Positions 17,166 to 36,383 of a stretch of DNA of 64,000 bases are shown piece by piece (the first letter of the stretch is position 1; the number at the start of each line of letters is the position of its first letter). The DNA is from a phage. Both the position numbers and the translations under genes were made by a program. The notes under the pieces are model-generated. The model had not been told where the DNA came from, ran no database searches, and saw only the letters and a list, made by a program, of their open reading frames with translations. Where the stretch lies: sequence record PZ386977.1, one strand, 5' to 3'.

Positions 17166-17221
17166 TTAAAAAAGGCCCGACCTTTTTGGAAGGGCCAAAA
17201 CCATAGGCAAAAAAGGTAACA

Positions 17222-17389
17222 CTATAGTAAAAGTTGGGTTTCGTTCAATTGCTCTTCTGAACTTTCTGAAACCGGCAATTGTTGTACATAATTATAACAA
17301 GGACCAGGATGTGCTGGACCTTTGTCTGTTTCAACAACCAATGCAGAATCGATTGGAGTTTTACAGACAACACAAATCTTATCTGACAT
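17222..17389 (-). CDS. small Cys-containing protein (55 aa), positional counterpart of uvsY.-2; below the ORF-track size cutoff
   Basis: translated by hand: MSDKICVVCKTPIDS...; strong RBS AGGAGG 6 nt upstream of ATG; clean ORF. Confidence 0.6.
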   Translation of the reverse strand: MSDKICVVCKTPIDSALVVETDKGPAHPGPCYNYVQQLPVSESSEEQLNETQLLL

Positions 17390-17421
17390 GATTGCCTCCT
17401 AAGTTGAAATTACATATCTAT

Positions 17422-33184: not shown

Positions 33185-33214
33185 TATAGTAACACATCCT
33201 ACAGGAGAGTAAAC
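33185..33214 (-). promoter_or_regulatory. T4-type early promoter
   Basis: minus-strand GTTTAC -35 and TACTATAG -10. Confidence 0.55.
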
Positions 33215-33244: not shown

Positions 33245-33268
33245 ACAAAAGGGAGACCGAAGTCTCCC
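33245..33268 (-). terminator. intrinsic terminator (GGGAGAC-UUCG-GUCUCCC plus U4)
   Basis: identical stem to the terminators at 9868 and 48035. Confidence 0.8.
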
Positions 33269-33273
33269 TAAAA

Positions 33274-33453
33274 TTATGCAACAACCTTTCCAAAACGAGA
33301 AGCATCATCTCGAAGAACTGCACGTGCTCTGCGCATGATCTTCTCAACTGTTTGATTAATACGAGAGTTCGACCCACGCTTGTATCCAGCGCGTTTAGAG
33401 GTACCATCAACTTTCTTTTCAACTGCTTTCTTTGCTTTAGCTTGTTTTGCCAT
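33274..33453 (-). CDS. small basic protein (59 aa), unannotated in the ORF track
   Basis: hand-translated MAKQAKAKKAVEKKVDGTSKRAGYKRGSNSRINQTVEKIMRRARAVLRDDASRFGKVVA; terminator 6 nt after stop; weak AG-rich RBS. Confidence 0.45.
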   Translation of the reverse strand: MAKQAKAKKAVEKKVDGTSKRAGYKRGSNSRINQTVEKIMRRARAVLRDDASRFGKVVA

Positions 33454-33748
33454 TATAAATTCTCTTTAAATGAAAATGCAGGACTTATTGACATTGCCTG
33501 CGCAAGCCCTCAAGGGGAACATAGGTTTTGGATATTTAACGACAGGATAACCATAAACCCGTCATCATACCAACCACGACTTAGACAGATAACCTTTTTC
33601 TGACGCGTGATAGTACAAAATACATTCAAGAGGTACACCGTAAAACTGCCGGGGTCTTAAAACTATAATGATTCGCAAATCATTAATCAGACAGTTCGAC
33701 GGCTCCTCGATTTTCTAGCCGCACTTAAGGTAGCGAATCACCTAAAAC

Positions 33749-33997
33749 TTATTTAAGGGTAATAACAAAATGACGTACTGCTTTACGAGCTGCAGAAGCC
33801 AAAGGCTTAGCATATTTCAGTTCATCTTTTGCTTCCAGTTCAGAGGCCAAAGCTGCCTGAGCAGGATTCAGATGTTTGAAATATCGCAGGATTTCCAGTG
33901 CTTCAGCTTCAACATCAATTGAAGCGCCGTAGTTTTCGTGACCGTTATTCCATGCGTTGCGTTGCAGTTCAAGAGCGTGTTGTAATTGTTTAATCAT
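33749..33997 (-). CDS. rIII: rIII lysis-inhibition accessory protein
   Basis: 82-aa ORF, exact T4 rIII size, located next to gene 31. Confidence 0.8.
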   Translation of the reverse strand: MIKQLQHALELQRNAWNNGHENYGASIDVEAEALEILRYFKHLNPAQAALASELEAKDELKYAKPLASAARKAVRHFVITLK

Positions 33998-34121
33998 TTT
34001 AAATTCTCAATTCGAGATAATATTTAGTAGCCACGTTCGTCTGAATTTCACCTTCTTTCGACAAGTCTCTCGGTTGTAGGCTACCGCTTAGAAGAGTGTT
34101 CTCTTCATATAGTTATTTATA

Positions 34122-34820: not shown

Positions 34821-35391
34821 AAAAGTTTCGGATTTGTTCCCAATTCAGAGAACGAAGATTATTACGAGAGTACTGAATTACTTCAATACCGGCTTGTTTA
34901 AGAATGTCTGCCCAATTTTCAGGAGATCTGTCATATAACTCAGCGTATACAACCTTTTTAATACCTGACTGCGTAATAGCTTTAGTGCAATCAGGACATG
35001 GAGAAAGCGTAGTATATAACGTAGCACCTTCAATAGAATTACCTTTACGAGCTGCAAATAAAATTGCATTCAATTCTGCATGTATTTCGTTATTAGCAGA
35101 CCATGCACTATGAGCAGCCCGATGTTCTTTAGCTAAAACAAAATTATCTACCCGTCCAAATGCTGTAGTGCCTTCTTTATGTCCAGCAACGATGGCTGGG
35201 ATTGGTTTATTCTTCAACCAACCATTTTCAGATGCATGTTCGCAACAGTTAACGCCACCTGCAGGTGAACCGTTATATCCAGTAGAGATAATGCGTCCAT
35301 CTTTTTCAATGACGGCACCAACTTTCCATGAACAACATTTTGATTCTTGAGAAATCAGATATGCAATCTGAAGGTATGTGCTAGCTTTCAT
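34810..35391 (-). CDS. cd: dCMP deaminase
   Basis: 193-aa ORF; zinc-binding motifs HAELNAI and SPCPDC. Confidence 0.93.
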   Translation of the reverse strand: MKASTYLQIAYLISQESKCCSWKVGAVIEKDGRIISTGYNGSPAGGVNCCEHASENGWLKNKPIPAIVAGHKEGTTAFGRVDNFVLAKEHRAAHSAWSANNEIHAELNAILFAARKGNSIEGATLYTTLSPCPDCTKAITQSGIKKVVYAELYDRSPENWADILKQAGIEVIQYSRNNLRSLNWEQIRNFCGE

Positions 35392-36383
35392 TATTGAACC
35401 TTATTAATATAAGTTAACAGCTCTTTAGTTTGTTCCCAACTGATGCACGCATCGGTAACGGAAATGCCATAGGACATATTATCAGAAATTTTTTGATTTC
35501 CTTCATGTAGGAACGATTCTATCATAATTCCTTTGACCAAATCATTAGCTGCTAAATTTTTACCAATACCAATTTGATTGCTATAATGCCCTTCAGCGTT
35601 TGCATGGCTACAGTCAACCATTACATAATGATTCAGACCTACTGCCCTTGCTTTGTTAGAAGCTTCTTGAATATCAGAAGAATGATAGTTCGGGCCGTTG
35701 GTCCCGCCACGCAATACGATATGCGTATTCTGATTACCTTCAGCTTCAACAATGCCTACAGTACCATCGACGTCCATACCCATATACCGATGAGGCCAGG
35801 CGGCACTATACATCGCGTCTGTAGCTACTTTAATAGAACCATTGGTTGCGTTCTTGAAGCCTACGCACATCGGTAGACCTGAAGCAATTTCACGATGTGT
35901 CTGACTTTCAGTCGTACGGGCGCCAATAGCAACCCATGAGAAAATACCAGAAAGATACTTAATCGTGAATGGGTCTAATACTTCAGTTGCTAATGGAAGT
36001 CCCATACGTAGAAGTTTACGACACAATGTTCGTGCAACTATAAGACCGTGGTTCATATCAAAACTTCCGTCAAGATATGGATCATTTACAAGACCTTTCC
36101 AACCTACGGTAGTTCGAGGCTTTTCAAAATAAACGCGCATCACTAACAGAACATTAGGAAGACGAGTTTGAAGTTCAGCCAGACGTTTGCCGTATTCAAC
36201 AGCAGCAATAGGGTCATGAATTGAACAAGGACCTACAACAATAAGTTTGCGTGGGTCTTCACCATTCATAATCGAATTAACTTGTTCGCGATGAGAAGCC
36301 ACTTGTGATGCGTAAGCTTCCGACAAAGGAATAATCTCAGCCAGTTCTTTTGGAGAAATAAGTTTTCCGACGACAGGTAACAT
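35391..36383 (-). CDS. 3-deoxy-D-arabino-heptulosonate-7-phosphate (DAHP) synthase, class I (AroG/AroF/AroH type)
   Basis: 330-aa ORF with motifs GPCSIHD, KPRTTVGWKG, GARTTESQ, LRGG, DCSHAN, ESFLHEGNQ, TDACISW; stop overlaps cd start (TAATG). Confidence 0.9.
   Translation of the reverse strand: MLPVVGKLISPKELAEIIPLSEAYASQVASHREQVNSIMNGEDPRKLIVVGPCSIHDPIAAVEYGKRLAELQTRLPNVLLVMRVYFEKPRTTVGWKGLVNDPYLDGSFDMNHGLIVARTLCRKLLRMGLPLATEVLDPFTIKYLSGIFSWVAIGARTTESQTHREIASGLPMCVGFKNATNGSIKVATDAMYSAAWPHRYMGMDVDGTVGIVEAEGNQNTHIVLRGGTNGPNYHSSDIQEASNKARAVGLNHYVMVDCSHANAEGHYSNQIGIGKNLAANDLVKGIMIESFLHEGNQKISDNMSYGISVTDACISWEQTKELLTYINKVQ

Follow-up and report, generated by a model that had tools for sequence, protein, structure and literature searches.

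ToxIN is a model abortive-infection system, in which the endoribonuclease ToxN is held inactive by ToxI, a pseudoknotted RNA antitoxin; T4-like phages serve as a model for escape from it, and the current account of that escape rests on the protein TifA. A phage-borne relative of the antitoxin, the "pseudo-ToxI" of phage phiTE, has been described (Blower et al. 2012, PMC3475682; an ncRNA in NC_020201), and a 2010 review (PMC3014915) states that functional characterisation of a riboswitch or trans-acting regulatory RNA was still lacking for T4. We analyzed a stretch of 64,000 nucleotides (nt) from a T-even phage of the RB69-like genus Mosigvirus (sequence record PZ386977.1; "the window" below) and, within it, the spacer between the gene rIII and the small gene 30.9. 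In our best reading the spacer is non-coding, belongs to the rIII transcript on the gene strand, and consists of a patchwork of small structured-RNA modules; we consider it rather probable that this co-transcribed spacer carries a pseudo-ToxI decoy, unannotated in T-even phages, together with uncharacterised structured RNAs. Gene 30.9 and its terminator were known already; what is new is a well-preserved solitary ToxI mimic in a T-even spacer and an uncharacterised pseudoknot that is universal to it.

The ToxI-like unit behind rIII

Judged by its sequence, the block that follows rIII (module 1; Table 1) is a single unit of ToxI, which is the RNA antitoxin in the type III toxin-antitoxin/abortive-infection system ToxIN. 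A 43-nt query matched 74 plasmid records (49 of them Escherichia) at several tandem places each, directly upstream of ToxN/AbiQ toxin genes, as in pECA1039 and the Escherichia coli plasmid pTA141-2. Identity to the pECA1039 repeat array and to the E. coli plasmid arrays is 89.7% over 39 nt (BLAST), the repeat itself being 36 nt, and Tandem Repeats Finder returns the ToxI consensus AGGTGATTTGCTACCTTTAAGTGCAGCTAGAAATTC in 5.6 copies. Relative to ToxI, U9C and A25G compensate each other as a pair, the UUU run is shorter by one U, and an A is added near the 3' end; module 1 can form both helices of the ToxI pseudoknot, as GGU/ACC and CGC/GCG (GGU/ACC and UGC/GCA in ToxI).

Pseudoknot pairs were counted in 13 distinct variants taken from bacteria, T-even-type phages, phiTE, Salmonella phage 7-11, and Vibrio phage JSF10. 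The two crossing helices are paired in 96.2% of cells, stem 2 in 100%, with CG/UA/AU at positions 9-25, GC/AU at 10-24, and GC/AU at 2-15. The resulting covariation score of 0.44 compares with 0.20 ± 0.036 for shuffled alignments (reached by 0/500) and with 0.09 or less for slid controls.

Published mutagenesis (PMC3475682) bears directly on these differences: phiTE-type changes of groups 1, 2, 3, and 5 leave antitoxin activity unimpaired, and C27G or U28A alone abolishes it. Module 1 reads GCGG-CUA-GAAAAU, so that C27, U28, and A29 are kept, and the changes that it has in common with phiTE (U9C with A25G, a missing U17, the extra A) are harmless ones. From these published data we infer that it resembles the active constructs more than the weak unit of phiTE does; it is likely a competent ToxI mimic, and we would expect it to inhibit ToxN.

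Module 1 starts 5 nt past the rIII stop codon, on the gene strand and with no terminator between, and therefore lies on the rIII transcript; PMC9409239 describes T4 rIII as transcribed from early, middle, and late promoters. The window holds one copy, and the next gene, 30.9, gives no Pfam ToxN signal, which together point to a solitary mimic and not to a ToxIN locus. In the mechanism that we propose, phage shut-off of host transcription would let host ToxI decay and free ToxN, whereupon the phage transcript would supply a ToxI look-alike that occupies ToxN, so that cleavage of phage mRNA would be delayed or weakened; module 1 may also be a seed, amplifiable under selection as in phiTE. The homology to ToxI, the compensated stems, the essential nucleotides kept, the orientation on the transcribed strand, and the presence of ToxIN plasmids in E. 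coli all support a decoy.

Units of the module 1 type, at 95% identity or more, occur in about 85 T-even-type phage records (Mosigvirus and Dhakavirus types), all of which leave them unannotated; T-even records have one ToxI-like unit at most. ToxI-like units overall are found in about 200 phage records from several families, and only that of phiTE is annotated ("pseudo-ToxI"). Klebsiella phages account for 163 of these records, mostly T4-like genomes about 165 kb long in which the exact GAAAU is kept, and T5-like phages carry such units inside tRNA clusters. Solitary or double units also stand in unrelated phage families (Vibrio phage JSF10, locus L194, 501-543; Klebsiella phage pzk-kv7, L195, 501-571; Salmonella phage 7-11, L193, 508-543; phiTE, L192, 500-558), often between tRNA genes (tRNA-Lys and tRNA-Arg in JSF10) or just before a terminator (7-11). 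The literature that we searched on pseudo-ToxI, or on ToxI with T4-like phages, describes no such unit in T-even phages, which at partial coverage is absence of evidence only. For a comparison with TenpI, the first 50 kb of a Yersinia plasmid were inspected and contained no suitable array.

Modules of the spacer

We gathered the rIII-30.9 gap from 42 distinct relatives, in which it is always at least 120 nt and reaches 416 nt. Its blocks are present, absent, or swapped even among close relatives, and six can be counted in the window. An earlier note on this DNA, made from the sequence alone, had measured the gap correctly (33454..33748, 295 nt), had seen no plausible open reading frame (ORF) in it, and had suggested a small RNA or regulator binding sites; the spacer is indeed non-coding and holds folded RNA elements, among them the ToxI-like unit and a conserved pseudoknot that the note had not recognised.

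An Rfam search, which the note had proposed, gave no credible match for the spacer: the region, the spacer alone (none credible at E up to 10), and four relatives with other modules yielded chance hits only, and the whole window had no match at the gathering score. Because Rfam also misses a genuine ToxI array, the lack of a match for module 1 tells nothing. A promoter scan found no site within the spacer, AAAU motifs are not enriched there, and its folding as a single sequence is unremarkable (z = -1.2 sense, -1.0 antisense). With module 1 removed, blastn of the spacer returned nothing from plasmids (E<3) or complete E. coli genomes; a loose 14-base motif scan of viral contigs gave mostly chance hits and was not used. 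No copies of the spacer modules were found elsewhere in the window, and modules from relatives match it only in the spacer and at 34032..34087. This last stretch, on the minus strand of the 31-rIII spacer, is 82% identical to a 56-nt insert in the Klebsiella-type relatives L155 and L167, where the insert lies inside a hairpin just upstream of 30.9; the same RNA-like block thus precedes different genes in different phages.

Module 2, an H-type pseudoknot of about 50 nt with conserved loops AUCC and UAAAUAUCCAAA, is present in exactly one copy in 42/42 distinct gaps. Across 33 distinct sequences, pairing holds in 83.6% of cells; the covariation score is 0.350, against 0.132 ± 0.018 for shuffles (0/500) and 0.04-0.14 for slid controls, and such scores are somewhat inflated by the structure having been derived from the same sequences. 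Pairs 12-34 (UA/AU/GC) and 13-33 (CG/GC/UA) of stem 1 and 23-53 (GC/AU) of stem 2 have no unpaired cell, and relatives replace whole stems (GUUGGUU/AACCAAC, AGUAGUU/AACUACU, GUGAG/CUCAC, CAAGGUU/AAUCUUG). In the window and T4 types stem 2 has 4 base pairs in register, or 6 with a one-base bulge; a U-G pair conserved in 26/33 sequences fits the gene strand only. Searched with a covariance model, the window gives a single hit, of 47.5 bits; the next best scores 11 bits. Rfam holds no match, a search of 185,579 genomes for the pattern as a tandem array gave chance hits only, none fitting the model, and plasmids and complete E. coli genomes contain no bacterial counterpart. To judge from this covariation, module 2 is a real conserved RNA structure, kept in many genera, and it lies in a part of the T4 map that is among the best studied. 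It sits about 70 nt upstream of the 30.9 start in the window, and our guess is that it may act in cis on the rIII-30.9 mRNA, either as an operator to which a protein (perhaps the basic gp30.9) binds or in the processing or stability of the message.

The remaining modules are hairpins. RNAalifold on 13 distinct relatives gives module 6 a total of 25 pairs, five with compensatory changes; three invariant G-U pairs are workable on the gene strand only. Module 5 is absent from T4, and in Dhakavirus-like relatives a 150-nt element stands in its place; its alignment fold has one compensatory pair on 5 distinct sequences only, which supports it weakly. Modules 3 and B, just upstream of the 30.9 ribosome-binding site, vary in their stems among relatives (CCTC/GAGG, GCT/AGC, GCCT/AGGC, and CAGG/CCTG versus CTGG/CCAG), and RNAalifold favours a competing pairing without covariation, which leaves a candidate fold.

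Two further elements are seen in the gaps of relatives. The element of about 150 nt (acggcaagtgcatgc ... ctaacggtgtgcaacagataagag) occupies the same spacer in many of them (loci L155, about 1353-1500, L159, L160, L162, L164-L169, L174, L179, L181, L183, and L185-L189), has covarying helices (GATGG/CCATC versus AATGA/TCATT; ATAC/GTAT versus ATTC/GAAT), matches nothing in Rfam or in plasmids, and is a candidate uncharacterised structured RNA. A small hairpin whose loop, UGUACG, is conserved and whose stem covaries (CCATG/CATGG, CTCTG/CAGAG, CTTTG/CAAAG) occurs in the gaps of L155, L161, L166, and L189 and not in the window.

These modules also account for two repeats singled out by the earlier note. 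The inverted repeat TGATTCGC/GCGAATCA is present, but the structure of about 70 nt that it was thought to close has no covariation support: the arms pair at 8/8 positions in the window type and 6/8 in the T4 type with no compensating change, 5/18 relatives have the 3' arm without any 5' arm, and each arm belongs to a better-supported local structure, the ToxI-type pseudoknot or the terminal hairpin of module 6. The direct repeat GACAGGATAACC/GACAGATAACC likewise exists, not as a pair of regulator sites but as the GGTTATC(C)TGTC segment shared by modules 2 and 5.

Gene 30.9, its terminator, and the surroundings

The region is 98-99% identical to the Mosigvirus phages JK45, G53, and ATK47. Its minus-strand gene order is DAHP synthase, cd, 31.1, 31, rIII, the gap, the 59-amino-acid (aa) ORF, a hairpin, 30.8, and 30.7; the order 31-rIII-30.9-30.8 is kept across the relative loci that we fetched, a few exceptions having one neighbor unmatched.

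The earlier note had the ORF at 33274..33453 and its 59-aa peptide exactly, along with an out-of-frame TTG ORF (61 aa), and its small Lys/Arg-rich protein with a terminator of its own is genuine and conserved. It erred in calling the ORF unannotated and foreign to the T4 map: this is gene 30.9, previously known, coding, without an assigned function, and conserved across enterobacterial T4-like phages. The gene is annotated in T4, RB69, and ATK47, the last two giving the T4 synonym 31.-2, which was listed as an ORF as early as 1990 in the T4 record M37882; the T4 orthologue (130364..130540, NP_049823) has the same layout behind a 244-nt gap (NC_000866, 130541..130784). In T4, in vivo expression of rIII and 30.9 was studied by Driukas and Nivinskas in 2003, as cited in PMC9409239.

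With tblastn, 30.9 was found in 985 phage records, whose hosts include Escherichia, Klebsiella, Enterobacter, Serratia, and Yersinia; the match to T4 gp30.9 has 97.5% identity over residues 17-56, and a profile search gave 124 clusters, all phage-like. Conservation of the reading frame, which the note had proposed as a check, is of the synonymous type: the core shows 82-92% nucleotide identity against 94-100% amino-acid identity, and of 36 third codon positions 35 are variable, versus 24 first and 20 second, which makes coding clear. The protein matches PHROG 1427 (E=2.4e-31) and has no Pfam match and no relative in the PDB. It carries the conserved motif SKRAGYKRGSN-R-IN (invariant core SKRAGYKR-SN-R) followed by one predicted helix; AlphaFold2 predicts that the N-terminal half is basic and disordered and that residues 34-52 form the only helix (mean pLDDT 70). 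A relationship to TifA was considered and ruled out (hhalign probability 0.1%).

The hairpin behind 30.9, GGGAGAC-UUCG-GUCUCCC-UUUU, is an intrinsic (rho-independent) terminator with a 7-base-pair stem. The note had given its stem and loop correctly; the hairpin (33268..33251, then TTTT) begins 5 nt past the stop codon, not 6. A hairpin stands at this position in every relative, its stems varying by compensation (GGGAGAC/GTCTCCC, GGACTCC/GGAGTCC, GGGAACC/GGTTCCC, GGGGCTCC/GGAGCCCC), and it is annotated as a terminator in the GenBank records of ATK47 and G53; a simple terminator scan did not flag it. It is followed by GTTTAC-17-TACTAT (33214..33186, minus), a T4 early-promoter pattern by eye; a consensus scan listed neither element.

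The promoter scan placed a promoter-like site, TTCAGA-17-TATTAT, upstream of rIII at 34045..34017. An AroG-type DAHP synthase of 330 aa (35391-36383, minus), annotated as such in ATK47, lies beside cd; it is an auxiliary metabolic gene and is not upstream of cd in the T4 or RB69 stretches that we fetched. The note had called the rIII-30.9 spacer the longest ORF-free island of the window; at a cutoff of at least 60 aa it ranks second, to 17166..17421 (256 nt), but that stretch holds a well-formed 55-aa minus-strand ORF (17222..17389, MSDKICVVCKTPID...) with an AGGAGG ribosome-binding site and a GC-rich hairpin after it, which looks like a real small gene below the cutoff of the ORF track, so the claim may hold biologically. 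A scan for tRNA and tmRNA genes found none in the window.

Table 1. Positions of the features discussed, in window coordinates
Feature	Positions	Strand	Details
rIII	33749..33997	minus	ORF and annotation in relatives; context gene upstream of the gap
rIII-30.9 spacer ("island")	33454..33748		295 nt, between rIII and the 59-aa ORF
Module 1, single ToxI-like unit ("pseudo-ToxI")	33709..33743	minus	AGGTGATTCGCTACCTTAAGTGCGGCTAGAAAATC; S1 33742-40 / 33731-29; S2 33735-33 / 33722-20
Module 6, long irregular hairpin	33623..33711	minus	outer stem GAGG/CCUC; terminal hairpin TAATGATT-tgcg-AATCATTA at 33685..33666
Module 5, optional two-stem hairpin cassette	33574..33613	minus	outer CACG/CGUG, inner CAGA-aaaaggtta-UCUG
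Module 2, H-type pseudoknot	33520..33570	minus	S1 AUGAC 33565-61 / GUCGU 33543-39; S2 UAUGGUU 33555-49 / AACCUAU 33527-21
Modules 3 and B, two small hairpins	33478..33517	minus	CCCC-uuga-GGG 33517..33507; GCAGG-caatgtcaataagt-CCUGC 33501..33478
Weak Shine-Dalgarno region of 30.9 (AAAGAGA)	33461..33467	minus	read from sequence
Gene 30.9 (T4 synonym ORF 31.-2)	33274..33453	minus	ATG ORF, 59 aa, basic; translation and annotation in relatives
Intrinsic terminator of 30.9	33247..33268	minus	stem 33268-33262 / 33257-33251, UUCG loop, U tract 33250-33247

Rival readings and known counterparts

Several observations weigh against a decoy, or against the roles that we attach to its neighbors. ToxN cleaves at AA^AU (GAAAU for the E. 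coli enzyme), whereas the 3' boundary of module 1 is GAAAAU, as in the phiTE pseudo-ToxI, and no cleavage match lies directly at its 5' boundary, the nearest AAAU being 10 nt before it, inside the end of rIII. Wild-type phiTE, with 1.5 units, is not protected, and its escape requires 4.5-5.5 units, whereas the window has one. RB69, of the same genus, reads taaGTAAATCGAGG where the window has taaGTTTTAGGTG...GAAAATCGAGG (8344-8606 of L316 versus 33709-33748) and so is without module 1, a clean absence of about 33 nt which indicates that within one genus the unit comes or goes as a single piece. Yet RB69 is the T-even phage least affected by E. coli toxIN, which has been attributed to the protein inhibitor TifA; the unit is thus neither necessary nor the main anti-ToxIN device in the group. 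As a cause of the low toxIN sensitivity of RB69 module 1 is ruled out. The T4/T2/T6 version (GGAGATTCACTGCCTTAGTGTGAGCTAAAT) keeps stem 2 by compensation and is otherwise degraded; it is much more diverged and does not score with the ToxI model. For the modules other than module 1, neither PLSDB nor complete E. coli genomes yielded a bacterial counterpart, so nothing links them to defence, and module 2 lies at different distances from the 30.9 start, following rIII directly in some relatives, which makes an operator less plausible.

The ToxI-like unit might instead be a neutral relic picked up by recombination with a toxIN plasmid, at most a seed for recombination or amplification, with the hairpins merely stabilising or punctuating the rIII-30.9 mRNA. 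Such an origin would suit a single copy that is cleanly lost in RB69 and several relatives, in a spacer whose modules come and go freely; the 1.5 units of phiTE are inactive until amplified, and T-even phages already have TifA against ToxN. A neutral scrap should decay, however, and here both pseudoknot stems are kept by compensation in several independent lineages (stem 2 fully paired, three pair types at one position), the essential C27 and U28 are kept while tolerated positions vary, and similar single units recur in unrelated phage families; we regard a relic as unlikely. We think it quite unlikely, too, that the whole spacer is a cis-regulatory leader or intercistronic control of 30.9, rIII, or both, bound by gp30.9, ribosomal protein S1, or RNases and setting translation or mRNA decay, with the likeness to ToxI irrelevant to defence. 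T4 does use RNA operators for gp32, RegA, and gp43; module 2 occurs in every relative and only in this spacer, hairpins stand just upstream of the 30.9 ribosome-binding site, and gp30.9 is predicted to be basic and largely disordered with one helix, as is typical of RNA binders. RIII itself binds ribosomal protein S1, according to PMC9409239. Yet the distance from module 2 to the 30.9 start differs among phages, from 70 to >250 nt, and regulation of 30.9 leaves the roughly 90% identity of module 1 to a bacterial antitoxin unexplained.

That the spacer acts as DNA (as a promoter, an operator, or a repeat of origin type), or conceals a gene for a small protein such as the 37-aa TTG ORF at 33565..33678, we hold to be very improbable. 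In the spacer ATK47 does bear an "ori type 2 repeat" label and G53 has an annotated ORF of 37 aa, and GTGTAC-17-TACTAT can be read there by eye as a weak early-promoter look-alike; but the promoter scan is empty in the spacer, the look-alike loses its spacing or its -35 element in the close relatives L152 and L150, the conserved G-U pairs are workable on the gene strand only, and the 37-aa frame is broken by 2- and 5-nt indels in relatives, where substitutions follow base pairing and not codons. A wider reading, to which we give a low probability, would make the spacer an RNA "anti-defence island", a hot spot for collecting and swapping decoy RNAs, in which the pseudoknot, the long hairpin, the 150-nt element, and the UGUACG hairpin mimic or sponge the RNAs or RNA-binding proteins of other defences, with gp30.9 as a partner; the ToxI mimic would then be the only module whose target is recognisable today.

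Were the proposed decoy role of module 1 borne out, phages would be seen to imitate type III antitoxins with RNA widely and as a standing strategy, not as a laboratory curiosity of phiTE, on a scale of about 85 Mosigvirus- and Dhakavirus-type genomes, with related units in about 160 Klebsiella T4-like genomes and several other families, and a ToxI mimic would be a confounder when toxIN sensitivity is compared among T-even phages.

Among described counterparts, T4 gene 30.9 is the plain orthologue, alike in its neighbors 31, rIII, 30.8, and 30.7 and in the position of its terminator, the differences (one extra residue, another C-terminal tripeptide) being trivial. The T4 gene 32 mRNA operator and ribosomal-protein leaders are H-type pseudoknots that lie in an mRNA leader or spacer beside genes for nucleic-acid-binding proteins, as module 2 is beside 30.9; module 2 differs from them in having no sequence similarity and a variable distance to the start codon. 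The mobile promoter/stem-loop cassettes (PeSLs) of T4-type phages (PMC2839356, PMC4122927) are short intergenic stem-loop modules that shuffle among related genomes, as the spacer modules do, and the 30.9 terminator with GTTTAC-17-TACTAT looks like such a cassette; the spacer modules, in contrast, do not pair a promoter with a terminator and have no further copies in the window. TifA (T4 gp61.4; PMC9391042, PMC10853763), the T-even counter-measure against ToxN, is a small basic RNA-binding protein, and gp30.9 is also small and basic; TifA works by trapping ToxN on rRNA; module 1 would work as an RNA that imitates the antitoxin.

Module 1 shares with the ToxI of pECA1039 and of E. coli plasmids the two pseudoknot stems and an A-rich 3' tail with the AAAU cleavage core, and differs in being phage-borne and untandem, with no terminator and toxN after it and with the tail GAAAAU in place of GAAAU. 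Closest of all is the pseudo-ToxI of phiTE, likewise a phage-encoded, intergenic, ToxI-like unit on the transcribed strand: the two are 91.4% identical, with the first 25 nt the same (including U9C/A25G and the 2T variant) and the same extra A before the 3' end. The phiTE unit comes from a member of the Vequintavirinae, where it lies next to tRNA-Tyr in 1.5 units with C27-U28-A29 mutated, which makes it a weak antitoxin (PMC3475682), whereas that of the window is a single complete unit in the rIII-30.9 spacer of one of the Straboviridae and keeps these three nucleotides.

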